A stretch of 64,000 bases of DNA from Alphaproteobacteria bacterium (lineage in GTDB: Bacteria; Pseudomonadota; Alphaproteobacteria; TMED109), in assembly GCA_022825235.1 (NCBI GenBank), contig JAJDYI010000016.1:3365-67364 (forward strand), in the 5' to 3' direction. How positions within the stretch are numbered: position 1 is the stretch's first letter; every line of letters begins with the position of its first letter. Below, in pieces: positions 33,335 through 47,043 of the stretch. The notes below the pieces were generated by a model that made no database searches, was not told the origin of the DNA, and saw only the letters and a list, made by a program, of their open reading frames with translations. The translations under genes were made by a program, and so were the position numbers.

Positions 33335-33886
33335 GGTTGCCCGGAGCCCCGGAGTTGGGGCAGGTCCCGCTGCAGCGGAGGATGGTGCACCGGGACACAG
33401 TCACCGCTTCCATGCCGCCCGTCATTTGCGGCCCGTCCCCCTGTTCTGCCCACCTGCCGTGTCCGGACGCTCGATCTCCAGGCACCAGGCATCCACCCCC
33501 GTCGCGCCACCTCCGCCATGAACGACGTGGAGTGCATCGCGCCCGCCGGCCATTCGCTGAGCGCACCTTCCCAGCGCCGTTCCGGGCCACGATCGCCAGG
33601 TTCGCGCACGAGAGCAGGGGCAGCGTGGCATCACCCAACAGCGTCGATCCGCCAGCCGTGTGTCGGCCCGGCCCATGGAGATCAATCGCAGTTAAACCGT
33701 TGATCTTGCGGCACAGTCGGGTCACACAGGTCGCTGCTGGCGCCAACTGCTACATTGTTGCATTATCGCATCGGCCATGGCTGGCCAGTCGTATGTTGAA
33801 TGGACTTGCGACCGCGTCGCGTCGAAACAAGGGTTAGTCCAACTCTCGATATCGCCCGAGCGTGCCGCTGAAATACCGAACCCACG

Positions 33887-34939
33887 ATGCAGAGATTTAT
33901 CCCTGAAACTGCCCGTGCCAAGTTCCCTGCAGTCGTGGTTTGCGGGGTCAATGCCCGCGCAAGGACCGAAGTTATCGAGCACTTGCTTGGAAAGGGCGGT
34001 GCCCGCTGGGCGGTGATCAGCAACGAAGTCGATGGTCCGGCGTTTCCCGCCGCTTCGATCGAACGCATTGGCGGGCAGATGGTGCCGCATGCCATCGGGT
34101 GTCTGTGCTGTGTCACGCGCTCGGGGCTGGTCAGCAGCCTGCGCCAGCTCTTCGCCCAACGTACGCAGGGTGAAATCGAATTCGACCATGTGCTGATCGA
34201 AACCCTGGCCGACGCAGATCCGGCGCCGATCATGCAGACCCTGCTGAACAATGCCCTGGTCACCGAGTACTTTCGCCTTGACAGTGTCGTTACGGTCATG
34301 CCCGGCGGCGAAAGTTTGAACGCGCTGGCGCAATCGCAGCACGGCTTCAAACAGCTCGCCGTAGCGGACCGCGTCGTGCTGGATGCCGCATCGCTTGCCG
34401 TGCCGGAAATCCGTGCACAGGTGCAGTGCTTGAATCCGGTTGCCGATCTAGTGCCGTCCGATCGGCCTCTCCTGGCAGAAGCACTGATCGGGGCGGGCCT
34501 GGAAACACGATTGCTGGACGGTGACTTGGGCGGTTGGCTGGCATCGCCGCACTACGCCAGCAGTGATCTGCTCGAGAACGGACTGCATGGGTTCGCAATC
34601 GAGGTTCCGCGAGCGCTTGAATGGGACGCGCTGCACGGCTGGCTCAACGCGGGCACGGACACGAACGGCGATGTCATGTACCGGACGAAGGGCGCGGTCA
34701 AGATCAAGGGCGTCGATGGACCGGTAGTCATCAACGGCGTCCAGCATGTCTACCAGCCTCCGCAACGGCTGCCTGAGGTCGAGGTCGATCACTCCCGGCT
34801 GCTGTTTATCACCTCCAATCTCGACCGCGCCGCAATTGAGGACAGCCTGCGCGTCGATTTGCCCCACTTTCAGCGCCTGAGCGAAGAACGGGCGGCCCGG
34901 CAAGCCCGCGCGGTCATGGATCCATCGCTACCGGTCTAG
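33887..34939 (+). CDS. COG0523 (CobW/ZigA/YjiA) family paralog with degenerate GTPase motifs (predicted pseudo-GTPase)
   Basis: 350 aa, colinear with the canonical COG0523 at 37638-38981. [11 protein letters not shown] becomes [17 protein letters not shown] becomes [14 protein letters not shown] becomes ETLADADP, and NKID becomes LDAA. The CxCC motif is retained (GCLCCV), as is the CobW_C-like C-terminus (YRTKGAVKIKG...SRLLFITSNLD). Confidence 0.75.
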   Translation: MQRFIPETARAKFPAVVVCGVNARARTEVIEHLLGKGGARWAVISNEVDGPAFPAASIERIGGQMVPHAIGCLCCVTRSGLVSSLRQLFAQRTQGEIEFDHVLIETLADADPAPIMQTLLNNALVTEYFRLDSVVTVMPGGESLNALAQSQHGFKQLAVADRVVLDAASLAVPEIRAQVQCLNPVADLVPSDRPLLAEALIGAGLETRLLDGDLGGWLASPHYASSDLLENGLHGFAIEVPRALEWDALHGWLNAGTDTNGDVMYRTKGAVKIKGVDGPVVINGVQHVYQPPQRLPEVEVDHSRLLFITSNLDRAAIEDSLRVDLPHFQRLSEERAARQARAVMDPSLPV

Positions 34940-35064: not shown

Positions 35065-35102
35065 TTGACAATCCTCAAGAATGAAATGTTATAATGAAAC
35101 AT
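35065..35102 (+). promoter_or_regulatory. Consensus sigma70-type promoter overlapped by a candidate Zur box
   Basis: TTGACA lies at 35065-35070 and TATAAT at 35090-35095, with a 19-nt spacer. The inverted repeat ATGTT-N7-AACAT (ATGTTATAATGAAACAT, 35086-35102) covers the -10 element. This is an AT-rich island in GC-rich DNA, 40 nt upstream of the cyclase ATG. Confidence 0.5.
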
Positions 35103-35142: not shown

Positions 35143-36309
35143 ATGACCGACGAAATCCGTGCAGACAAATCCGTTGACCAACAAGCGGTCACGGAGGAGT
35201 CTCAGGACGGCGAAGGAATGACGTCACAGTCACGCCGCACATTTATCAAGACGGCCACGGTCGCCACCGGCGCAGCAGCGGTCGGAGCCATCGGTGGTGG
35301 GGTGATGCACGAGCTGGATCTCGTCAGACCCGCGCACGCTGCCGAAGGCGGTATCGAGGGCACGCCTATCGCCGGGAAATGGTGGCCGTCTCGCTGGGGC
35401 GAGGGCGACCAAACCGGCTCGACCAACCACATGACGCCGGAAGTAGCGCTGGACGCGGCAAGCCTGATCAAGAAGGGCAAGGTGTACAGCCTGGGCCGGG
35501 TCTACGAATACGGCATGCCGTTGTTCGGTCAGCGGGTGTTCGCCCTGCGGATTCCGGGTGCTCCAACTGGGGGCGCGTTCGGCAAGAACCAGATCATCTG
35601 GCATGACGAGATCCTGACCACCGAAATCGGTCAGGTCGGCACGCAGTTCGATGGGCTCGCCCACATCGGCGCCCGAGTCGGCGAGGCGGGTGATCTGGAC
35701 CAAGAGGTGTTCTACAACGGTTTCACCACGAAGGACTTGCACAACAACGACGCCGACATGGGGTCCACTGCCGGCGCCTACGGGCTGCAAGCGCTCGGTA
35801 TGGAGCACGTCAAGCCGTTCTTCTGCCGCGGGATATTGTTCGACGTCATGAGCCTGAAGGGCCGCATGCTGGACAAGGGTGAGGAGATCACCGTCGCCGA
35901 CCTGCAGGCCTGCCTGGAACGTCAGGGCATGAGCGAAGCCGACATCACTGAAGGTAGCGCGTGCATGTGGCGCACGGGTTGGGGCGAAGAGCTTTGGATG
36001 AAGGACAACGCCCGATTCAATTCCGGCGAGCCCGGAATTGGCGTGGGTGCGGCGGAGTGGCTCGCAGCCAAGGGGATTTCCGTGGGTGCAGCCGACGTCT
36101 GGGCGATCGAGTGCGTGCCCAATCCGGATCCAAACCTGGCATTCCCCGTGCACCAGATCTTCCTGCCGAAGAACGGTATCCACATCCTGGAGAACGTACG
36201 GCTCGACCATCTGGCGAATGACGACGTCTACAAGTTCGCCTTCATTTTCTCGACGCTGCCAATCAAGGGTGCCACGGGATCACCGGGCAACCCGATTGCG
36301 GTCGTCTAG
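35143..36309 (+). CDS. Cyclase-family (kynurenine formamidase-like, PF04199-type) protein with twin-arginine signal
   Basis: 388 aa with GGAGG 7 nt upstream of the ATG. It has the Tat motif SRRTFIKTATVATGAAAVGA, then GDQTGSTNHMTPEVALDAASLIKKGKVYSLG, QVGTQFDGLAH where the family has HxGTHxDxPxH, and C-terminal FPVHQIFLPKNGIHILENVRLDHL...PIKGATGSPGNPIAVV. Confidence 0.75.
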   Translation: MTDEIRADKSVDQQAVTEESQDGEGMTSQSRRTFIKTATVATGAAAVGAIGGGVMHELDLVRPAHAAEGGIEGTPIAGKWWPSRWGEGDQTGSTNHMTPEVALDAASLIKKGKVYSLGRVYEYGMPLFGQRVFALRIPGAPTGGAFGKNQIIWHDEILTTEIGQVGTQFDGLAHIGARVGEAGDLDQEVFYNGFTTKDLHNNDADMGSTAGAYGLQALGMEHVKPFFCRGILFDVMSLKGRMLDKGEEITVADLQACLERQGMSEADITEGSACMWRTGWGEELWMKDNARFNSGEPGIGVGAAEWLAAKGISVGAADVWAIECVPNPDPNLAFPVHQIFLPKNGIHILENVRLDHLANDDVYKFAFIFSTLPIKGATGSPGNPIAVV

Positions 36310-36316
36310 CAAGACC

Positions 36317-37360
36317 TCAAGCTGGGCGGGCCAGACGGGCGAGTGTTGCGGTATCGAAACGATATCCGAACAATCGCCCGTCGGAGTCCCCGCCCAGCAA
36401 GTGGCCCCCATTCGGGGACCACGCAAGTCCCGTGACGGGACTGCTTGACGCGGTCACCAGGCTGTGCCGCTGTGGCCGCGTCGCCAAGCTCACCAACTCG
36501 AGACCGCCATCGTTGTAACCAGCGGCTGCCAGGGCGAAGCTTGGATTCGCGCAAACATTGCCGATCAACTGTTCGCTGTAGCGTCCCAGCATGCGTGGTG
36601 CCGCCGCCGGCAGGCGGCCGTCCGAGAACGGCCAACCGCTCACCGTGTCGGCCCCGGAGGCGAGCAGCCACGCGCCGTCAGCGCTCCAGCTGAGAGCCTT
36701 CACCTTGTTGAAGCATGGCCCGAGACTGGCGTCTCGTCCAGCAACGAGGTCCCAGGCGTGCACTGTTTTTTCCTGGGTCGCCGTCACCACGAACCGTCCA
36801 TCACGGCTCCAGCTAAGATTGAGGTGCGAGCCCCGGTGAAACAGACGTTGCGGCTCGCCAAATCGCCCGTCCAGCGTCCACACGCTGACCCCGTTGTAGT
36901 GCGAGACGGCCAGACGCCGGCCGCTGCCGTCAAAGGCCATGCCGGCGACGGTGCTCGGATGCTCTCCAAGGACGCCAGCCGGCCGGCCTTCGGCATCCAG
37001 CAGCCGGACTTCCGGACCGTCGGAGACCGCCCTCAGACCGCACGGGTGGGCAGCGAGTTGATCAGGCCAGGAACGGGTCAGCTGCATCAACTCCCGGGGC
37101 TTGTCCTCGGCGTGCACCTGGTAGACGGCACCGTCATCAGCCCCGCACAGGAAGCCAAGCTCCCGGCAATCGGCAGTCAGTGCCAGAACCGCGCCTTTGT
37201 TCAGCGCCCGGACCGAGAGAGACGGTTCCTGGTCGAGAAGGGCGACCATGCGGACGCAACCATCCCCTCCTGAGAAAGCCGCAAACCGCCCGCTGCGCTC
37301 AACACAAACGCCGGTCAGCGGCGCGTCCACCGTCCAGCGTTCGAGCGCATAGTCGATCAT
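36317..37360 (-). CDS. WD40-type beta-propeller protein, no signal peptide
   Basis: 347 aa with repeated strand patterns ending in W/D-type dipeptides (VSVWTLDG, TVHAWDLVAG, LSWSADGAWLLASGADTVSGW, LAWSPNGGHLLGGDSDGRLFGY). The N-terminus MIDYALERW is not hydrophobic. Confidence 0.75.
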   Translation of the reverse strand: MIDYALERWTVDAPLTGVCVERSGRFAAFSGGDGCVRMVALLDQEPSLSVRALNKGAVLALTADCRELGFLCGADDGAVYQVHAEDKPRELMQLTRSWPDQLAAHPCGLRAVSDGPEVRLLDAEGRPAGVLGEHPSTVAGMAFDGSGRRLAVSHYNGVSVWTLDGRFGEPQRLFHRGSHLNLSWSRDGRFVVTATQEKTVHAWDLVAGRDASLGPCFNKVKALSWSADGAWLLASGADTVSGWPFSDGRLPAAAPRMLGRYSEQLIGNVCANPSFALAAAGYNDGGLELVSLATRPQRHSLVTASSSPVTGLAWSPNGGHLLGGDSDGRLFGYRFDTATLARLARPA

Positions 37361-37637: not shown

Positions 37638-38981
37638 TCATCGCACCCTGCAATCGCGCAACCCCTGTTCCAGCCCAGCTTCATCCAGATTGCGGCCGAT
37701 AAAGACCAACCGGCTGGTGCGGGGTTGGTCGCCCCAGGCGTCGCCTGGCTGGCCATCGAACAGCATGTGCACGCCCTGAAACACGAACCGCAGGTCTTCA
37801 CCCGCGATCGCCACGATGCCCTTCATGCGGAAGATATCGGGGCCCTGGGTCTGCAAGAGCCGGCTCAGCCAGGCGTTGAGTGCTGCACGGTCGATCTCGC
37901 CGTCGAGTTCCAGCGCGACCGAACCGACCGTGTCGTCGTGCGTGTGCTCCGGGTTGAAGACGTGCTCCGCAGCGATGTCCATCTCCGCGCCGGCGGCATC
38001 GAAGAACCCGGCGTTGAACTCCTCCGGCATGTGCTCGGTAAACAGTGCGTACAGACCCGGCTGATCGACTGCCAGCGTGTACTCATAGTGATCGGCATCC
38101 GTGAGCGCGAGCGTCCAGAGGGTTTCGCCCGGGGACATCGCAGCGCCGGGCTGCAGCAACTCACCGGATGCGGAGAAGCGCGTGTAAACGCGTTCCGCGG
38201 TCTCCATCAGGACCTCGGACGTGGCCGCATCGACGGGCTCCAGCACCGCCGACATGACAGGGTCCGGGCCGTTCTGAAGCTTGAACGTTGCCTCGCTGCC
38301 GAGATGCAGCACGCCGCCCCACTCGAACGGGTACTCGGGTTCAAGGAAACCCGGTTTGAGTTCGAGGGCGCGGTCGAGATCGAAGCCGCCGACATCGAGC
38401 ACTTGCTCCATAGGGGCGTCGGCCATCTGAACCCGCTCAATCCGGGCCATGGCATTCATCGACCTGAGCCGCCGCTCAAGCGCATCGAGTGCCTCGGCTT
38501 CGACCAGATCGATTTTGTTGATCAGGATCACGTCAGCGAAAGCGATTTGCGACGTGGCTTCCTCGCTGTCGTCGAGATGCAACTCGGCATGTTTCGCATC
38601 GACCAGCGTGATGACGCCGTCCAGGTCAAAGGATTCGCGGGTATCGTCATCGACGAAGAACGTCTGTGCCACCGGGCCCGGGTCTGCTAGGCCGGTGGTC
38701 TCCACCAGGATCCGGTCGAACTTGTCGCGCCGCTTGACAAGGTTGCCCAGGATCCGGATCAGGTCGCCCCGCACGGTGCAGCAGATGCAGCCGTTGTTCA
38801 TCTCGAAGATTTCTTCGTCGGCATTGATCACCATGTCCTGATCGACGCCGATTTCGCCGAATTCGTTCTCGATCACAGCGATCCGCTGACCGTGGTTTTC
38901 AGTCAGAATACGGTTAAGCAACGTGGTTTTGCCGCTACCGAGAAACCCGGTCAGCACGGTTACGGGGATATGCTGGGTCAT
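37638..38981 (-). CDS. COG0523 family G3E GTPase (ZigA/YeiR/CobW-like zinc metallochaperone candidate) with a long internal insertion
   Basis: 447 aa: [17 protein letters not shown] (Walker A), ENEFGE, GCICCT (CxCC), [15 protein letters not shown] (NKxD), a short His cluster EHTHDD, and a CobW_C end ([11 protein letters not shown]...[11 protein letters not shown]). About 125 extra residues (aa 216-340) separate the G domain from the C domain. Confidence 0.9.
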
Positions 38982-38995
38982 CTCGCAATCCTGTT

Positions 38996-39013
38996 TGTTA
39001 CAATATTACACAT
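38996..39013 (-). promoter_or_regulatory. Candidate Zur box upstream of the COG0523 GTPase
   Basis: TGTTACAATATTACACAT lies 15-32 nt upstream of the ATG at 38981. It is AT-rich and partly palindromic and resembles the boxes at 35086 and 42363, but the symmetry is imperfect. Confidence 0.35.
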
Positions 39014-39578: not shown

Positions 39579-40496
39579 TCAGGTCGAAAGCGCCCGCGCA
39601 AGTGTCAAGGCGTTGTAGCGCATCATGTCCAGATAGGTAGACGCCGGGCCGTCCGGTTCGGACAGCGAATCGGAGTAAAGCGTCCCGCCGATGGAGGCGC
39701 CGGTTTCGTTGGCGATCTGTTCGAGCAGGCGCGAGTCCGTGATGGACTCGACAAAGATGGCCTTGATCCCCTCTTCGCGAATCTGCCGGATCAGGGCAGC
39801 GACGTCCGCAGCGGACGGCTCACTTTCAGTGCTCACGCCATGTGGCGCCACAAAATGCAAACCGTAGGTCTCGGAAAAATACCCAAAGGCGTCGTGGGAG
39901 GTAACGACAGTGCGCCCATCCTCGGGCAACCCCGCGACAATCTCGCGGATCTCGGCATCCAGCGCCTTGATCTCGGCCACATAGGCCGCTCGGTTCCGGT
40001 AGTACGAGGATGCGTTCGCAGGATCGACCGCGGCCAGCACCGCGGTGATGTTATCCACGTAAACCACTGCATTGGCAAGGCTTTGCCACGCATGCGGGTC
40101 GTAAGCGGCATGATCGTCGTTACCCTCAAACGCGATCGGCGCGATCCCTTCGGACGCCACCACGCGGATGCCGTCAAAGTTCGATGCCTCGACCAGCCGG
40201 TGCAGCCAGCCTTCGAATGCGAGGCCGTTGAACACGAGGATGTCAGCCTGGCTCACGGCACGTGCATCTGCCGGGACCGGTTGGTAGACATGCGCGTCGC
40301 CATCGGCTCCCACGAGCGTCGTGACGGCAACGTGATCACCGCCGATGCGCTCGACCATGTCTCCCAGTATCGAGAAGGTGGCAACCACTGGGACGGGGGT
40401 GTCGGACCAGGTCGACGTCGGGGCGGCCAACGACAGGCCTACGAGGGCGGTTGCGAATTTCAGCAGGCTTCTGCGGCTGGGCATCAGATCGTCCAT
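39579..40496 (-). CDS. znuA: Metal (Zn/Mn-type, cluster A-I) ABC transporter substrate-binding protein
   Basis: 305 aa with an N-terminal SRRSLLKFATALVGLSLAAP. It has DAHVYQP, YDPHAWQS, TSHDAFGYF and a ZnuA/TroA-like layout. The inter-lobe loop is short (EGNDDHAAYDPHAW), so there is no long His-rich loop. It forms an operon with the permease and ATPase. Confidence 0.8.
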   Translation of the reverse strand: MDDLMPSRRSLLKFATALVGLSLAAPTSTWSDTPVPVVATFSILGDMVERIGGDHVAVTTLVGADGDAHVYQPVPADARAVSQADILVFNGLAFEGWLHRLVEASNFDGIRVVASEGIAPIAFEGNDDHAAYDPHAWQSLANAVVYVDNITAVLAAVDPANASSYYRNRAAYVAEIKALDAEIREIVAGLPEDGRTVVTSHDAFGYFSETYGLHFVAPHGVSTESEPSAADVAALIRQIREEGIKAIFVESITDSRLLEQIANETGASIGGTLYSDSLSEPDGPASTYLDMMRYNALTLARALST

Positions 40497-41363
40497 TTAG
40501 GCTTCGACGTTACGACGCGGCAAGACTGGCGCAGCAAGACTGCCCACGGGCCCCAGGGTCAGCGACAGCCCGTAGGCGAGGCCCGCTGCGAGAATAATCG
40601 CCGGCCCGGACGGCAGTCCGAAATGGTAGGAGACGAGGAGACCGCAGCCGCTCGCGACGATGGCGATCGCGACCGCGACAAGGATCAGCCCGCCAATGCT
40701 GACGGCCCAGAAGCGCGCGGCGGCGGCCGGAACGATCATGATGCCGACCGCCATCAGCGTGCCGAGCGCATGAAAGCCGCTGACGAGGTTTATGACGACG
40801 AGCGCAAGGAAGGTGAAATGAGTCACAGCGCTCAGCCCGCTCACCGTGCGCAGGAACTGCGGGTCTGCACACTCTAGAACCAACGGGCGGAAGAGAAGTG
40901 CGAGCGCGATCAGCGTAAGGCTCGTGATGCTGCACAGTAGGATCAGCGCCGAGTCGTCGAGCGCGAGCACGGTGCCAAAGAGCACGTGCATCAAATCGAT
41001 ATTGCTCCCGCGGGTGGAGACGATCAGCACGCCAAGCGACAGCGATATCAGGTAGAAGGCGGCAAGGCTCGCATCCTCGCGCAAAGCCGTAACGCGGGTC
41101 ACGAAGCCCGAAAGCAGCGCCACGGCCATGCCGGCGACCAGACCGCCGACCGTCATGGCCCCGAGTGAGAGCCCCGCGACGAGATAGCCGACGGCAGCGC
41201 CGGGCAGAATTGCGTGCGCCATTGCATCGCCTGTCAGGCTCATCCGGCGCAACATCAGAAAGACGCCGACCGGCGTCGCGCCCGCCGAGATCGCGATGCA
41301 ACCCAGCATGGCGCGGCGCATGAAGCCAAATTCAGCAAATGGCTGAATCAAAGCTTCCCACAT
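40497..41363 (-). CDS. znuB: Metal ABC transporter permease (ABC-3 family)
   Basis: I prefer the ATG at 41363 (MWEALIQPFAEFGFMRRAMLG), which overlaps the znuC stop by 1 nt (TAATG). The protein is polytopic, and its stop abuts the znuA start. Confidence 0.85.
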   Translation of the reverse strand: MWEALIQPFAEFGFMRRAMLGCIAISAGATPVGVFLMLRRMSLTGDAMAHAILPGAAVGYLVAGLSLGAMTVGGLVAGMAVALLSGFVTRVTALREDASLAAFYLISLSLGVLIVSTRGSNIDLMHVLFGTVLALDDSALILLCSITSLTLIALALLFRPLVLECADPQFLRTVSGLSAVTHFTFLALVVINLVSGFHALGTLMAVGIMIVPAAAARFWAVSIGGLILVAVAIAIVASGCGLLVSYHFGLPSGPAIILAAGLAYGLSLTLGPVGSLAAPVLPRRNVEA

Positions 41364-42106
41364 TACAAGGCGTCTCTCCCGCAATCGTGGGGTGGGCCAA
41401 CACAGGCCTCACACATCTGGCGGGCGCGGAACTGGTTCGCGGCCGTCAACACTTCTGCCGTGGGTCCATGCGCCACGAGATCACGAGCCAGTATCAGGGT
41501 CTCGGGGAAATACGCCCGAACAGTCTCCACATCGTGCAGAACGGTGATCACGGTGCGCCCCTCTCCATGCCATCGCCGCACCACCCCCAGGAGATCGATC
41601 ATCGTCTTGGCATCGATGGCCAAGAACGGCTCGTCAAGCAGCACGAGCCGCGCGTCCTGAAGCAGGAGGCGCGCGAAGAGCGCCCGCTGGATCTGCCCGC
41701 CAGACAACGAGCCGATGGGTCGGGACTCAAACCCGGTGAGACCGACGGCTGAAATGGCATCGTCGACCTGCGCGCGATGCGCGGCGCGCAGCCCGAAAAA
41801 CCCGCCGATCTCGCTCCAGAGGCCCACCGCCACGAGATCGACCACCGTGATCGGAAACGATCGGTCGATGTCCGACTGCTGCGGCAGGTAGGCGATCTCG
41901 TTCCTCGTGCAGGTTCCGAAGTCGACGTGCCCTGCGAGTGGACGCAGGTCACCCGTCACCCCCCTTAGCAGCGTCGACTTACCCGCGCCGTTGGGCCCCA
42001 CGATGGCGGTCAAACTGCCGTCGGCTACCTCGCCATCAACGCGACGCACAGCCGGATGCCGGTCATAGCCGAGGGTCAGCTCCCGGAATGCAACGGCGTA
42101 GGTCAT
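41363..42106 (-). CDS. znuC: Metal ABC transporter ATP-binding protein
   Basis: From the ATG at 42106: MTYAVAFRELTLGYDRHP..., GPNGAGKSTLL (Walker A), LSGGQIQRALFARLL (signature) and LVLLDEPF (Walker B). Confidence 0.85.
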   Translation of the reverse strand: MTYAVAFRELTLGYDRHPAVRRVDGEVADGSLTAIVGPNGAGKSTLLRGVTGDLRPLAGHVDFGTCTRNEIAYLPQQSDIDRSFPITVVDLVAVGLWSEIGGFFGLRAAHRAQVDDAISAVGLTGFESRPIGSLSGGQIQRALFARLLLQDARLVLLDEPFLAIDAKTMIDLLGVVRRWHGEGRTVITVLHDVETVRAYFPETLILARDLVAHGPTAEVLTAANQFRARQMCEACVGPPHDCGRDAL

Positions 42107-42237
42107 AGGCCCCCCGGTGTGGACGTCGCCCAGAAGAATCCGGCCCACAGCGCCATTACGATCAGTATCGCACCGGCCAGCCGCGGACCGACGCCGATGA
42201 GAAGCATCCGGCGCGCGGTGTGGCGCCAGACTCTCAT
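42103..42237 (-). CDS. Candidate 44-aa single-pass membrane protein, translationally coupled to znuC
   Basis: This is an internal ATG of the 77-aa track ORF: MRVWRHTARRMLLIGVGPRLAGAILIVMALWAGFFWATSTPGGL. GGAGG lies 7 nt upstream, 35 of 44 codons end in G/C, and the stop overlaps the znuC start as ATGA. Confidence 0.45.
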   Translation of the reverse strand: MRVWRHTARRMLLIGVGPRLAGAILIVMALWAGFFWATSTPGGL

Positions 42238-42362: not shown

Positions 42363-42379
42363 ACGTTATATTATATCAT
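42363..42379. promoter_or_regulatory. Candidate Zur box in the divergent znuC / DUF2796 control region
   Basis: ACGTTATATTATATCAT (reverse complement ATGATATAATATAACGT) is a near-palindrome sitting in the only AT-rich stretch of the 575-bp intergenic region. Confidence 0.5.
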
Positions 42380-42680: not shown

Positions 42681-43301
42681 GTGACATCTGTTCGGAAATG
42701 GCACCCCCCGTACCGGATGCTGCCGGCGGTGGCTTTGGTTCCCGCCTTCCTTGCTTCGTCCGCGTTGGCAGCGAATCACGAGCACCGCGAGCATGACGCC
42801 CATGCGCATGGCCATGGAACCCTCGACATCGTGGTGGAAGGCGAGCTGGCAATGCTCGAGCTCCGCATGCCTGGCGTGAACGTCGTCGGTTTTGAGCATG
42901 CTCCGAAGGACGACGCCGAGCACGAGGCAGTGCGGCGGGCACTGGAACCTCTTCAAGACGGGGCCTCTGTCTTCGTGCTCACACCGGAGGCCGACTGCGT
43001 GATGGAGCACTCCGCAGCCGAGATCACCGCTGTAGCGGACGACGAGCATCATGACGATGGGCATCACGACGCCGATGAACACGGCGAGCACGAGGCCGAT
43101 GCCGGTGAAGAAGAGCATTCCGAACTGCGCGCGACGTATCAATTTCGTTGTGGTGCGCCGGAACGGCTTGACCGGATCGAGACGCATGTGCTCGAGCATC
43201 TGCACGACGTCGAGGAAATCGAGGTGCGGGCAGTTACGCTGACGGAGCAACTGGCAACGGAACTACACGAGGGGTCGACGGTCGTGGACCTCACGCCCTG
43301 A
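42681..43301 (+). CDS. DUF2796-like His-rich periplasmic metal-binding protein (ZrgA / PA4063-like)
   Basis: GTG start with GGAGG 7 nt upstream. It has a signal peptide (LPAVALVPAFLASSALA), then NHEHREHDAHAHGHG and DDEHHDDGHHDADEHGEHEADAGEEEH. The family name is from memory. Confidence 0.7.
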   Translation: MTSVRKWHPPYRMLPAVALVPAFLASSALAANHEHREHDAHAHGHGTLDIVVEGELAMLELRMPGVNVVGFEHAPKDDAEHEAVRRALEPLQDGASVFVLTPEADCVMEHSAAEITAVADDEHHDDGHHDADEHGEHEADAGEEEHSELRATYQFRCGAPERLDRIETHVLEHLHDVEEIEVRAVTLTEQLATELHEGSTVVDLTP

Positions 43302-43568
43302 CACCGAGCTTCAAGAACGCGCATATTCGATCTTGCAGTAACCTAGAGTGTCCCGTCCTCATCGACGATCGTTGTCCATCGAGTTGCGTCGGGACGAGCG
43401 GCAGTCCCAGGGCGGTCGACGTATTGCCTGCAGACCCAGGATGGTGCTGGCCGCGAGGAAAACGATCATGATCGAGCGCGGGCACCGACGCGCAGGAAGC
43501 CCGGCAGGAAAGCCGTTTCAGTCGCTCAGTCCCGTCGCGCCGGGGAGGGCTTGAGAGCAGAGCTTGGG

Positions 43569-44291
43569 ATGATCGTCGAAATTGACCACGTCCGATTTGC
43601 TTGGAAACCCGGTCAACGCGACATCCTCGACATCGCTTGTCTGCAGATCGCTGCCGGGGAAAGAGTATTCATCGAAGGGCCGAGCGGCAGCGGCAAGAGC
43701 ACACTGTTCAGCCTGCTCGGCGGCGTGGTAAGCCCGCAACAGGGAACGGTGCGGGTTCTTCAGGCGGAAATCTCGCGGATGCCCGCGTCCAAGCGCGACC
43801 AGTTTCGCGCCGATCACATCGGCTTCGTGTTCCAGATGTTCAATCTCGTGCCTTACCTGTCGATGATTGACAACGTCGTTCTGCCTTGCCGCTTCTCGCA
43901 GCGGCGGCTGGCGCGGGCGGCAACTAGGTCAGGCTCACCCGAAGCAGAAGCGCGTCGCCTACTCGTCCGCCTGGGGCTGGAACCGGCCGAACTGCAGGCC
44001 CGGGTGGCGACCGAACTCAGCATCGGTCAGCAACAGCGCGTGGCCATCGCGCGAGCACTGATCGGGGCGCCGGAGTTGATCATGGCGGACGAGCCGACTT
44101 CGGCCCTGGACGAGGGCTCGCGTCAGCGCTTCCTCGAAGTCTTGTCCGAACAATGCAATGAAGCCGGTGTGTCTCTCCTGTTCGCGAGCCATGATGCGCG
44201 CCTGGGCACCTCGTTCGACCGCAGGATTGCAATCGCGGAGTTGACCCCTGAAGGCTCCATGAACGCGATCAGGCCATCTGAAGGGGCGTAG
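43569..44291 (+). CDS. ABC transporter ATP-binding protein (MacB/LolD-type)
   Basis: GPSGSGKSTLFS (Walker A), LSIGQQQRVAIARAL (signature) and LIMADEPTSALD (Walker B). The start is either the ATG at 43569 or the TTG at 43551 used by the track. Confidence 0.85.
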   Translation: MIVEIDHVRFAWKPGQRDILDIACLQIAAGERVFIEGPSGSGKSTLFSLLGGVVSPQQGTVRVLQAEISRMPASKRDQFRADHIGFVFQMFNLVPYLSMIDNVVLPCRFSQRRLARAATRSGSPEAEARRLLVRLGLEPAELQARVATELSIGQQQRVAIARALIGAPELIMADEPTSALDEGSRQRFLEVLSEQCNEAGVSLLFASHDARLGTSFDRRIAIAELTPEGSMNAIRPSEGA

Positions 44292-44600
44292 TGCGCTGCC
44301 ATCGTCCGACCAGCGGTGAAGCGGGGAGCCGACCGTCCCGGGACAGAAAAGCGTCCGCCGTCGTGCAATCCGCATATGCTCGAAGGGTCGCCCTTGGGCA
44401 GCAGAACTGGAGGACTGCACAGACGCGCATGGACAGGAACGTTGTCGACCGGGAACGAACTGGGCCAATGAGAAGCTTGCCCATTCCTATGGACGCGCCA
44501 TCCGGGCTGAACCGACAGCCGCTCTGCGCGGTGCCGAGCGCCGACGCCGAACCGTTGTGTGCGGTCGTGAACCGATGAATTCACCGGGATAGCGCGACCA

Positions 44601-45860
44601 ATGGCGATGGTCCGACTTGCGCTGCTCAGCGTATTGAGCCGTCGGGTTACGGCTGGACTAACCCTTCTTGCGATCGCGATCAGCGTGGCAATGCTGCTGG
44701 GAGTGGAAAAGGTTCGCCGCGACGCCCGTGGCGCCTTCGCCAATACCATATCCGGCACCGATCTTGTCGTCGGGGCCCGCAGCGGCGCGATTCAGTTGCT
44801 TCTCTACTCGGTATTCAGGATCGGAAACGCCACGAACAACATATCCTGGGAAACCTACCAGGACATCGGAAGCTTGCCCCGGGTCCGATGGACTGTGCCG
44901 ATTTCTCTCGGGGACTCCCATCGCGGCTTCCGGGTCATGGGAACCTCAACGGACTACTTCACGCACTATCGATACGCCCGGCACGAAACGCTGCGGTTCG
45001 CCGCCGGCAGGCCGTTCGTGGACGTCTTCGATGCAGTGCTCGGGGCGGAGGTCGTCAGGCAGCTCGGCTATGCGCTCGGTGACGAGATCATCGTCTCGCA
45101 CGGTGCCGGCGAAGTGAGCTTTCTGGAACACGACGACAAACCCTTCCGTGTGGCCGGGATCCTTGCTCCCACCGGCACGCCGGTCGATCGCACCGTGCAT
45201 GTGAGCGTCGAGGGCTTCACCGCCATGCATATCGACTGGAGCGCCGGGGCGCCGATTCCAGGCCTGACGGTGACGGGCGATCAAGCCCGCAGCATGGATC
45301 TCACGCCAAAGACCATCACCGCCTTCCTGGTGGGTCTGGACAGCAAGATCGCCATCTTCGACGTCCAGAGGCGGATCAACGACTACCGCGAGGAACCGGT
45401 CCTCGCGATTATTCCCGGCGTTGCCCTGCAGGAGCTGTGGGACATGATGAGCGTCGCCGAGAACCTGCTTCGCTTCGTATCCGCCATGGTGGTGGCGACC
45501 GGGTTACTGGGGATGCTGACCGTCATCCTCTCGAGTCTTGAGGCCAGACGCCGGGAAATGGCGGTGCTCCGCTCTGTGGGAGCGAGGCCCCTGCACGTGT
45601 TCGCATTATTCATGAGTGAGGCGACGGTGTTTGCGCTGGTCGGGGCGGCAACCGGAGTGGCCCTGCTTTACGTCGCGCTGCTGATCGGCCAACCGATGGT
45701 GGCGCGCGAATTTGGCCTGCATCTGCCGATCGCAATTCTCGGGCCGTCGGACTGGTGGATCATCCTGGCGGTGGTCGTGGCAGGGACCGCAGCCGGTGCC
45801 ATTCCTGCAATCCGGGCCTACCGACTGTCGCTCGCCGACGGTCTATCGATTAGGATTTGA
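44601..45860 (+). CDS. FtsX/MacB-type ABC transporter permease
   Basis: 419 aa with an N-terminal TM helix (LTLLAIAISVAMLLG), a large extracytoplasmic domain and three C-terminal TM helices with an FtsX-like pattern (REMAVLRSVGARPLHVF). Confidence 0.85.
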   Translation: MAMVRLALLSVLSRRVTAGLTLLAIAISVAMLLGVEKVRRDARGAFANTISGTDLVVGARSGAIQLLLYSVFRIGNATNNISWETYQDIGSLPRVRWTVPISLGDSHRGFRVMGTSTDYFTHYRYARHETLRFAAGRPFVDVFDAVLGAEVVRQLGYALGDEIIVSHGAGEVSFLEHDDKPFRVAGILAPTGTPVDRTVHVSVEGFTAMHIDWSAGAPIPGLTVTGDQARSMDLTPKTITAFLVGLDSKIAIFDVQRRINDYREEPVLAIIPGVALQELWDMMSVAENLLRFVSAMVVATGLLGMLTVILSSLEARRREMAVLRSVGARPLHVFALFMSEATVFALVGAATGVALLYVALLIGQPMVAREFGLHLPIAILGPSDWWIILAVVVAGTAAGAIPAIRAYRLSLADGLSIRI

Positions 45861-45862
45861 CA

Positions 45863-46426
45863 ATGTCGACACTACGACCACGGGATATCGGTACCTTGGC
45901 AGTGACGCTGGCCACGATCGCGCTGCTCGCGGCGCCGGCACCCGGTGGGCCCGCTCAGGCAGCGCAGGATGAGGCGCGGGAACTCGGGTGGGATGATCTC
46001 GCGCCCGCTGACTGGGATCCGCTCGCCGGGCTCGAGGCCCTGGGCGGAGAAGACCTGCAAGGCCTGACCGACGACAGCGATCGGGCTGGGGAGATGCTCG
46101 AGGCCTATCGTGAAGCAGCCCGCTCGGCCCCGGTCGTGGGCGAGCTCGACGGCCAGCGGATCCGGATTCCCGGATACATCGTCCCGCTGGAATTCGACCA
46201 CCTAGTGGTCTCTGAGTTCCTGCTCGTACCGTACTTCGGTGCCTGCATCCACGTACCCCCGCCGCCCGCGAACCAGATCGTCTACGTGACAACGGAAACT
46301 TCATTTCCGACGACGAAGGTCTTCAAACCGGTCTGGGTAACCGGTGTGATCAGGACGCAGGCGTACCTCAACGAGGTCGGCGACGCCGGATACCGGATGC
46401 ACGCGATGAACATCGAGCTCTACTGA
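45863..46426 (+). CDS. DUF3299-like exported protein (ZrgD / PA4066-like)
   Basis: It has a signal peptide (LAVTLATIALLAAPAPGGPAQA) and the hallmark LLVPYFGACIHVPPPPANQIVYV. It starts 2 nt after the permease stop. Confidence 0.75.
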   Translation: MSTLRPRDIGTLAVTLATIALLAAPAPGGPAQAAQDEARELGWDDLAPADWDPLAGLEALGGEDLQGLTDDSDRAGEMLEAYREAARSAPVVGELDGQRIRIPGYIVPLEFDHLVVSEFLLVPYFGACIHVPPPPANQIVYVTTETSFPTTKVFKPVWVTGVIRTQAYLNEVGDAGYRMHAMNIELY

Positions 46427-46548: not shown

Positions 46549-47043
46549 TCAGGCGTCAGTGACCTCAACGCAAACCGGACACCGGCCCATCACTTCCAGC
46601 ACGTGGGCGCGGAGTTCGAAGTCGGACTCGGCAGCCAGTTCCTGCACCGTGCGACTCAGACTGTCCACGCTCGGTTCGGCAACGATCCCGCACTCCTCGC
46701 ATACCAGCAACACCGTGCCGTGCCCCTCTCCCTGGCTGCTGCAGGCGACATAGGCGTTTCGGCTCGCGATGCGGTGCACCAGACCCATGGTCTCGAGGAA
46801 CGCAAGCGCACGGTAGATCTGGGCCGGGGCCGGTTTTCGGCCCTTCCAGTCGAACCGCTCAAGGATTTCGTAGGCGCCGGCAAGCCGGTGTTCTGCAAGC
46901 AAGAGCTCCAGCACTTGCCGACGGTTGTCGGTCAACCGCTCCTGCTGGCCCCGACATACTTTCTCGGCCCGGGCAAGGCCGGCCGCAATGCACCTGCCGT
47001 GGTCATGATGAGACGACGGGAACAGAGACGATTGGCCTGCCAT
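46549..47043 (-). CDS. zur: Fur-family zinc uptake regulator
   Basis: 164 aa with a winged-helix segment (RRQVLELLLAEHRLAGAYEILERF...IYRALAFLETMGLVHRI), CEECG and a C-terminal CPVC metal site. The genomic context is zinc uptake genes. Confidence 0.85.
   Translation of the reverse strand: MAGQSSLFPSSHHDHGRCIAAGLARAEKVCRGQQERLTDNRRQVLELLLAEHRLAGAYEILERFDWKGRKPAPAQIYRALAFLETMGLVHRIASRNAYVACSSQGEGHGTVLLVCEECGIVAEPSVDSLSRTVQELAAESDFELRAHVLEVMGRCPVCVEVTDA

Follow-up and report, generated by a model that had tools for sequence, protein, structure and literature searches.

Proteins of the COG0523 family, among them YjiA and YeiR of Escherichia coli, ZigA and MigC of Acinetobacter baumannii, ZagA of Bacillus subtilis and eukaryotic ZNG1, combine a cobW domain with a CobW_C domain in a YjiA-like fold; the clients and mechanisms of the bacterial chaperones are largely unknown (PMC11672702). 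The RxKG motif of CobW_C supplies an arginine finger plus a catalytic Lys that "self-gaps" ZigA and MigC (2026 preprint, PMC13001444). COG0523-like proteins that do not work as GTPases have also been described. Zur-regulated Rv0106 lacks GTPase motifs (Haas et al., 2009, PMC2770081), its orthologue Mrf is a ribosome-binding recruitment factor (PMC6094098), and CobW3 of Cupriavidus metallidurans is reported to have no GTPase activity (PMC11340326). Here we analysed a gene for a 350-amino-acid COG0523 protein in a 64,000-nucleotide stretch of DNA (the window) from an uncultured Alphaproteobacteria bacterium (GTDB TMED109; assembly GCA_022825235.1, contig JAJDYI010000016.1, positions 3,365 to 67,364). 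We conclude, with a probability of roughly 0.6, that this gene encodes a nucleotide-independent COG0523 derivative, or pseudo-GTPase, that serves as a metal-binding adaptor or relay in a Zur-controlled module.

The 350-residue protein has the cobW and CobW_C domains and the YjiA-like fold of the family, and it has CxCC, RxKG, a Zur-regulon context and a znuABC neighbourhood in common with the canonical COG0523 zinc metallochaperones. Unlike them, it lacks G1, the G3 Gly, G4 and a His-rich linker, and carries a conserved His beside CxCC and a 37-residue C-terminal helix ending in DPS[LI]P. Like Mrf (MSMEG_6069/Rv0106, the Mpy recruitment factor), which is Zur-regulated and whose role is that of an adaptor, not of an enzyme, it is COG0523-like and has no canonical Walker A motif. 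However, Mrf carries CxSC and belongs to an operon of C- ribosomal proteins, whereas the 350-residue protein carries CxCC, has cyclase, WD40 and COG0523 neighbours and lacks neighbouring ribosomal paralogs; it also gave no match to the Mrf model NF047431 at E<=0.01, and membership in the Mrf family was rejected. The second parallel is with CobW3 and CobW2 of C. metallidurans, COG0523-family members of the Zur regulon with non-catalytic zinc handling (PMC11340326). Here the arrangement is the opposite of that in CobW3, which has no internal CxCC and binds up to eight Zn through its His-rich C-terminus (PMC11340326): the 350-residue protein keeps CxCC, has no His-rich region and has lost its G motifs. 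Subfamily 5 of Haas et al. (2009), marked by clustering with WD40 and znuABC genes, fits the canonical 447-residue paralog encoded nearby, judged by its context of WD40 gene, znuABC and Zur box; it describes this neighbour and not the 350-residue protein, and no cyclase neighbour or P-loop-less CxCC partner is mentioned (PMC2770081). Our literature search found no paper linking COG0523 with pseudo-GTPase terms or with a cyclase/WD40 module. The first-pass annotation of this DNA, which a model made from the letters, knew of no characterised bacterial pseudo-GTPase within COG0523; Mrf/Rv0106 (PMC2770081, PMC6094098) and CobW3 (PMC11340326) are precedents. Non-GTPase COG0523-like proteins are already known, and the clade that includes the window gene is distinct from both, because CxCC and RxKG are both retained, a His-rich region is missing, the Mrf model gives no match and the gene neighbourhood is a different and very constant one.

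The loss of the GTPase motifs carries the main conclusion. The motif register was taken from BLASTP against the neighbouring paralog, phmmer against E. coli YjiA and a MAFFT alignment with canonical COG0523 proteins. All three reproduced the register that the first-pass annotation had drawn by eye, and the proper alignments bore out its claim that Walker A, ExxG and NKxD are gone (Table 1). In the G1 remnant, the first Gly and the Thr (T27) are retained, the GSG glycines are replaced by Ala and the Lys by Arg; in G3, E105 is retained and the ExxG Gly has disappeared, leaving ETLA or ETLP in the subclade of the window gene (a marine alpha/gammaproteobacterial group of 42 alignment rows). A survey of orthologs showed that the degenerate state is common to the whole lineage: the G-K-[ST] core is missing in 44/44 full-length close orthologs (58-95% identity), with G1, G3 and G4 degenerate in all 44, so that chance does not account for the motif loss. 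The compared genomes are related, and these and later counts are therefore not independent. Within the subclade the old P-loop varies (GVNARART, GVDGCAGT, GIGTQSKT and GVDGRAVT), and the Gly preceding the Walker Lys is substituted in every sequence, the Lys position itself being R, K, G or V. Column entropy at G1 is 0.5-2.0 bits, which is the background level, versus 0 in canonical relatives, and it is zero throughout aa 65-82. The CxCC motif (GCLCC, aa 71-75) is invariant in the clade, R266 of RxKG is invariant and K268 nearly invariant in the subclade, and the G3 remnant is followed by an invariant helix, DPAPxMQTLLNNALVT (DPAPxxQTLLNNALVT over the clade).

The protein nevertheless models as a COG0523 member. 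It matched Pfam cobW (PF02492) at 63.1 bits (cut-off 20.7), compared to 207.7 bits for the canonical paralog, and CobW_C (PF07683) at 55.9 bits (cut-off 22); together with GCLCC, the latter match agrees with the earlier statement that CxCC and CobW_C are preserved. It scored far below the NCBIfam equivalog cut-offs for YjiA-type proteins (NF008578, 82.9 vs 361), CobW (TIGR02475, 54.7 vs 332.1) and ZigA (NF038288, 35.4 vs 600). An AlphaFold2 model built with 32 clade sequences had a predicted local distance difference test (pLDDT) score of 90.2 and a predicted template modelling score (pTM) of 0.90, and its closest solved structure was Zn-bound YjiA (4ixm; TM 0.65/0.71). By this model, the protein folds as a YjiA-like two-domain protein. 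The C-terminal helix has pLDDT 91-94, and the extension is missing from canonical relatives. In the clade, this 37-residue, Arg-rich tail has DPS[LI]P as its final motif, and D324, P326, R335, R338, R341, D345, P346, S347 and P349 are invariant or almost so. With the G-domain fold predicted to be kept, the G motifs degenerate and the gene under purifying selection, the protein is, on alignment and model, a probable pseudo-GTPase.

Pairwise NG86 ratios of nonsynonymous to synonymous substitution rates (dN/dS) were 0.13-0.22 for the degenerate gene and, in the same genome pairs, 0.13-0.19 for the WD40 gene, 0.14-0.21 for znuA and 0.05-0.15 for the canonical paralog. Regional dN/dS was computed for 25 species (192 pairs, dS 0.15-1.0) in two ways, by the median of dN/dS in each region and by dividing regional dN by the dS of the whole gene. 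The whole gene gave ~0.22, the CxCC block (aa 63-82) 0.02-0.03, aa 105-132 0.06 and the former G-motif positions 0.30-0.39. Because the metal block and the helix have low values and the former G motifs high ones, constraint has left the nucleotide site and now lies on the metal site and the helix that comes after it. The gene could otherwise be a decaying paralog, a young pseudogene whose frame is still open, as the loss of the GTPase motifs and the presence of broken copies might imply. One broken copy lies in a second module copy (G009 contig 86, L024/L057, 3214-4418), where the degenerate COG0523 gene is frameshifted, with ~155 extra nt and a duplication of aa 113-130; in another genome of the genus (G007, L022, 8998-9606), only a C-terminal remnant (aa 145-349) is left, and the cyclase and WD40 orthologs are missing. 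This explanation, to which we give hardly any credence, is refuted by the selection analysis: 25 species give a dN/dS of ~0.2, the CxCC block being constrained 10-fold more strongly, orthologs of 39-95% identity in three proteobacterial classes have an unbroken frame, and clade-specific invariant residues have been gained. The substitution pattern thus indicates a functional gene under purifying selection, in line with the earlier remark that this is no obvious pseudogene.

The clade is well separated from the rest of the family. Full-length orthologs run from 95% down to 39% identity and, after a gap, canonical COG0523 proteins follow at ~30-35%. In a profile search of 1.84 billion 50%-identity representatives, no more than five clusters of full-length proteins, plus two fragments, scored above 300 bits, and the next match, at 246 bits, lacks the C-terminal 30 residues. 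Scanning one genome per species in 185,579 GTDB species, by a pattern that divergent members may escape, we found 37 clade loci, every one in a metagenome-assembled genome (MAG). Identities are 73-90% for alphaproteobacterial loci (Thalassobaculaceae, Rhodospirillales, Geminicoccaceae), 68-72% for Gammaproteobacteria and Thiotrichales and 39-45% for Burkholderiales and Rhodocyclaceae. The P-loop-less gene of the gammaproteobacterial MAGs (L051-L054), 68-72% identical to the alphaproteobacterial copies, is likewise accompanied by the module of neighbouring genes described below, which points to lateral transfer of the island between classes. The names of several carrier MAGs hint at marine or sponge-associated sources.

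A maximum-likelihood tree recovered the clade as monophyletic (support 100/100) and as sister to a small canonical group (97/87); its long stem branches (0.81 and 0.71) lead into short internal branches. No clade member has [NT]KxD, not even where the P-loop is intact, and most lack the ExxG Gly. Burkholderiales-type members keep GxxGxGK[ST] and have RxR[AG] in place of RxKG; the RxKG Lys is Arg in most P-loop-bearing members and is retained in the P-loop-less subclade. The P-loop was lost on the stem of the subclade (the branch of length 0.71), and a second, independent loss is seen in P0122. The alignments and tree imply that G4 was lost first, then the G3 Gly and the RxK Lys, and then, twice, the P-loop. 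Because the losses are graded and the old P-loop is variable, the nucleotide site is decaying stepwise over the clade, with the window gene as the end state.

Other positions became fixed in the clade. P67, H68, G80, N121, T126, Y128, H250, A255 and G256 are clade-specific invariants; P67 and H68 stand just ahead of CxCC (VPHAxGCLCC) and are missing in canonical relatives, G80 replaces an Asp that is invariant in canonical proteins, and HGWLNAG is conserved in the C-terminal domain (CTD). The His-rich linker of the canonical sister sequences is missing. This last difference bears on a zinc-buffer role, one of the functions raised in the first-pass annotation, by which the protein would be a cytoplasmic store that soaks up and releases zinc during starvation, as CobW2 and CobW3 of C. 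metallidurans do, and has no specific client. Zur linkage and the conserved CxCC block are compatible with such a store, and COG0523 proteins with storage or buffering roles are known, one of them without GTPase activity (PMC11340326). CobW2 and CobW3, however, bind 6-8 Zn through His-rich stretches, whereas clade proteins would offer about one site per 350 residues, and the new surfaces with their strict conservation, together with the tail and the fixed set of neighbouring genes, speak for contacts with specific proteins. We therefore regard a buffer as improbable.

The gene lies in a conserved neighbourhood (Table 1). In all contexts examined, the clade gene occurs with genes for a cyclase-family protein carrying a twin-arginine translocation (Tat) signal, a WD40 protein, a canonical COG0523 protein (~447-460 residues), a Fur-family regulator, and ZnuABC or NicO. 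Across alpha-, gamma- and betaproteobacterial MAGs, the cyclase is present in 36/37 loci, the WD40 gene in 33/37 and the canonical COG0523 gene in 31/37. The misses are at contig ends, except in two Thiotrichales-type genomes, where the canonical gene is unlinked and the other three genes are together. In many other loci, too, a Fur-family gene stands next to the clade gene. Within the window's genus, the same 7/12 genomes contain the clade gene, the cyclase ortholog and the WD40 gene, so that the module is gained and lost as a unit. In one genome (G035), a canonical sister-group COG0523 gene stands beside an ortholog of the same Tat-cyclase gene, so that the cyclase link may predate motif loss. 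No cyclase or WD40 gene was seen near three canonical relatives (P0074, P0083 and P0108); the association is therefore a specific one, shown by the clade and by at least one member of the sister group.

Table 1. Features of the degenerate COG0523 gene and its neighbourhood, in window coordinates.
Feature	Position	Strand	Evidence
Weak Zur-box-like site, 125-139 nt upstream of the degenerate-gene start	33748..33762	.	3 mismatches to TGTWATATTGTWACA
Degenerate COG0523 paralog, coding sequence, 350 aa, ATG start	33887..34939	+	Open reading frame (ORF), Pfam, AlphaFold2, dN/dS
G1/Walker A remnant GVNARART (aa 20-27); canonical GFLGSGKT	33944..33967	+	Alignments, column entropy
G2/switch I remnant SNEVDG; canonical ENEFGE; N46 and E47 retained	34019..34036	+	Alignments
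Metal block PHAIGCLCC with CxCC (C72, C74, C75), P67 and H68	34085..34111	+	Entropy, dN/dS
G3/Walker B-switch II remnant ETLADADP; canonical ETTGLADP	34199..34222	+	Alignments, regional dN/dS
Lost G4 guanine-specificity site, DAAS (aa 166-169); canonical [NT]KxD (NKID in the paralog)	34382..34393	+	Alignments
RxKG motif of CobW_C, RTKG (aa 266-269), retained	34682..34693	+	Alignments, entropy
Clade-specific C-terminal extension: Arg-rich helix (aa 314-344) ending in DPSLPV	34826..34936	+	Alignments, AlphaFold2
Zur-box-like palindrome ahead of the cyclase-family gene	35087..35101	.	Palindrome scan
Tat-signal cyclase-family protein (PF04199)	35143..36309	+	Pfam Cyclase and TAT_signal
WD40 beta-propeller, cytoplasmic, signal-less	36317..37360	-	Pfam WD40
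Canonical COG0523 GTPase, 447 aa, all G motifs	37638..38981	-	Pfam, alignments
Zur-box-like palindrome, 0 mismatches, directly upstream of canonical COG0523	38996..39010	.	Palindrome scan
znuCBA zinc ABC importer operon	39579..42148	-	Pfam ZnuA, ORFs; adjacent orthologs at most loci
Zur-box-like site between znuC and the divergent zrgA-like module	42364..42378	.	Palindrome scan
Fur-family regulator gene, probable zur	46549..47043	-	Pfam FUR

The two COG0523 genes are neighbours in 31/37 loci, and a pairing of the 350-residue protein with the adjacent canonical GTPase is possible on this arrangement. The degenerate protein might then act in trans on the 447-residue enzyme, as a heterodimer or by lending its RxKG arginine finger as a GTPase-activating element. 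Retention of RxKG in the P-loop-less subclade, with the Lys changed to Arg in most P-loop-bearing members, would suit this role, as would the finding that an isolated cognate CTD can restore ZigA's and MigC's GTPase activity in trans (PMC13001444). That rescue, however, is cognate-specific and occurs only with RxK-mutant enzymes (PMC13001444), the canonical paralog carries its own RxKG (FRMKG), and the canonical gene is unlinked in the two genomes that keep the other three genes together. Moreover, the first-pass premise that G3E GTPases commonly work as dimers is weak for COG0523: a 2024 review considers that these proteins may act singly and that, in YjiA, the CTD would stand in the way of a UreG/HypB-like dimer, leaving COG0523 dimerisation doubtful (PMC11672702). 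Trans-regulation thus seems to us about as unlikely as the zinc store.

Several features of the neighbouring genes were recorded. In the canonical paralog, the G domain is separated from CobW_C by an insert of ~125-150 residues (aa ~205-350), which takes the place of the short His-rich linker of relatives, and this insert is conserved in the 447-460-residue orthologs of all module loci. One WD40 ortholog, in a MAG of the genus (G004:C49:2352-2960), is split in two by an in-frame TGA, which may be a sequencing error or mark a broken gene. In one locus (L001, 9039-9989), a PIN-domain gene and a DUF6364 gene, probably a toxin-antitoxin pair, are inserted directly behind the degenerate COG0523 gene and split it from the other module genes, whose orientation is inverted in this genome. 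A module of ZrgA, ABC ATPase, FtsX-MacB permease and DUF3299 genes (42681-46426) adjoins znuCBA. A 44-residue ORF heading znuC (42103-42237), already listed in the first-pass annotation, is likewise predicted as a gene in L067 (17225-17359), a contig from a related metagenome.

The Tat-cyclase reads QVGTQFDGLAH where kynurenine formamidase has HxGTHxDxPxH. A paralog with a Sec signal, encoded at another place in this genome (L072, G000:C47, 421-1551; ~48% identity), carries the same Q..Q variant (QxGTQxD), as does the uncharacterised Protein Data Bank entry 5IBZ. We considered whether the Tat-cyclase is a zinc-sparing paralog, with Gln for His only in the Zur-controlled copy. This was ruled out by the presence of QxxTQxD in both the Sec paralog and 5IBZ, which makes Q..Q a subfamily trait and not a zinc-sparing change.

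Regulation by Zur is suggested by a 15-bp palindrome, TGTWATATTGTWACA, which gave 6 strand-matches at 4 sites in the window compared to 0.09 expected, and which resembles the known Zur-box core TGTTATAWTATAACA. All 4 AT-rich sites are upstream of island genes, namely the degenerate COG0523 gene, the cyclase gene, the canonical COG0523 gene and the divergent znuC/zrgA region, and they are probably Zur operators, judged by their sequence and placement. The classical palindrome (<=3 mismatches) is found 120-450 nt upstream of the ortholog in 22/34 other loci, and in three loci the clade gene is downstream of znuCBA on the same strand, behind a box. The window site at 33748 falls within the longest perfectly conserved block of the upstream spacer shared with L067. 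This 550-bp, GC-rich spacer (33335-33886), which has no convincing gene, separates the degenerate COG0523 gene from a PALP+CBS gene and is 93% identical to its L067 counterpart; other species have zur or znuA in its place. A sigma-70 promoter scan of the spacer found nothing.

Some of our observations weigh against an adaptor or relay free of nucleotide in a Zur-controlled module. The window's own box at 33748 is weak, departing from the local consensus at 3 positions and from the classical palindrome at ~6. The cyclase gene has its own promoter and box, so that co-transcription is not required, and mirror-tree (partial) correlations, which are confounded by shared history, single out no partner. 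Seven subclade orthologs have Lys at the Walker position, and Thr27, N46, E47, E105 and RxKG are conserved still, so that some phosphate or nucleotide binding would be possible. The last two observations could mean that the protein is still an NTPase or nucleotide-binding switch, with a non-canonical P-loop (GxxxxA[RK]T), the RxKG finger and E105, and with base specificity perhaps lost in favour of ATP or another nucleotide. Conservation of G20 along with T27, N46, E47, E105 and R266/K268 fits such a switch, as does the persistence outside the subclade of GxxGxGK[ST] in proteins that already lack G4. By contrast, the Gly before the Lys is substituted in all subclade sequences, with R, K, G or V at the Lys position; substitution at the G1 positions is as fast as the average of the gene or faster; and neither the G3 Gly nor G4 remains. 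Studies of ZigA and MigC also show that activity needs an intact G loop (E99A in MigC, PMC12208494). We consider a nucleotide switch unlikely, if slightly less so than a zinc store or a trans-regulator.

The preferred reading, a metal-site-keeping pseudo-GTPase, agrees with that of the first-pass annotation in its motif loss, purifying selection and lineage-wide degeneracy; the buffer role and the dimer premise offered with it have fared less well. From these patterns we infer that the protein binds metal and no nucleotide, and likewise which proteins are its partners and which way the metal moves. The protein would be produced under zinc limitation, within the Zur-controlled island, and would hold one metal ion, most likely Zn(II), at C72/C74/C75. 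His68, four residues ahead of CxCC, could be the fourth ligand if the site is like the S3(N/O) metal site of MigC (PMC12208494). Uncoupled from GTP binding or hydrolysis, this site would make the protein an adaptor or relay that holds metal passively within a fixed module, a role for which the adaptor function of Mrf is a precedent. Because the Tat signal of the constant cyclase-family neighbour implies folding, and presumably metal loading, in the cytoplasm before export, this protein would be the most concrete candidate client. The WD40 protein is a possible scaffold, and the canonical COG0523 GTPase would be the likely energy-using partner for a GTP-driven step. Contacts with partners may be made through the new conserved surfaces, which are the QTLLNNALVT helix, HGWLNAG and the Arg-rich tail ending in DPSLP. 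Speculatively, the pairing of a Sec paralog with a Tat copy would accord with a change to loading in the cytoplasm under zinc scarcity. A bolder proposal, which we hold only tentatively and think rather unlikely, is that the four genes form a dedicated cytoplasmic machine for metallation and quality control of the Tat-exported enzyme under zinc starvation, in which the pseudo-GTPase holds metal or client, the DPS[LI]P tail docks on WD40 and the canonical paralog provides GTP-driven transfer.

All carriers found are uncultured MAGs, and this restriction to uncultured bacteria limits the significance of the findings. Within the family, the clade amounts to a natural experiment, in which the GTPase was removed, selection on CxCC was tightened and the RxKG finger was retained, and it can thereby reveal the roles of the metal site and the CTD without nucleotide coupling. 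The stepwise loss of motifs documents the origin of a bacterial pseudo-GTPase. The fixed partners (the Tat-exported protein, the WD40 protein and the canonical paralog) are concrete client and scaffold candidates, which are rare for COG0523. If the four-gene metallation machine were true, it would give the COG0523 family its first bacterial system in which the client is defined and the work is shared out between an active and a dead paralog.

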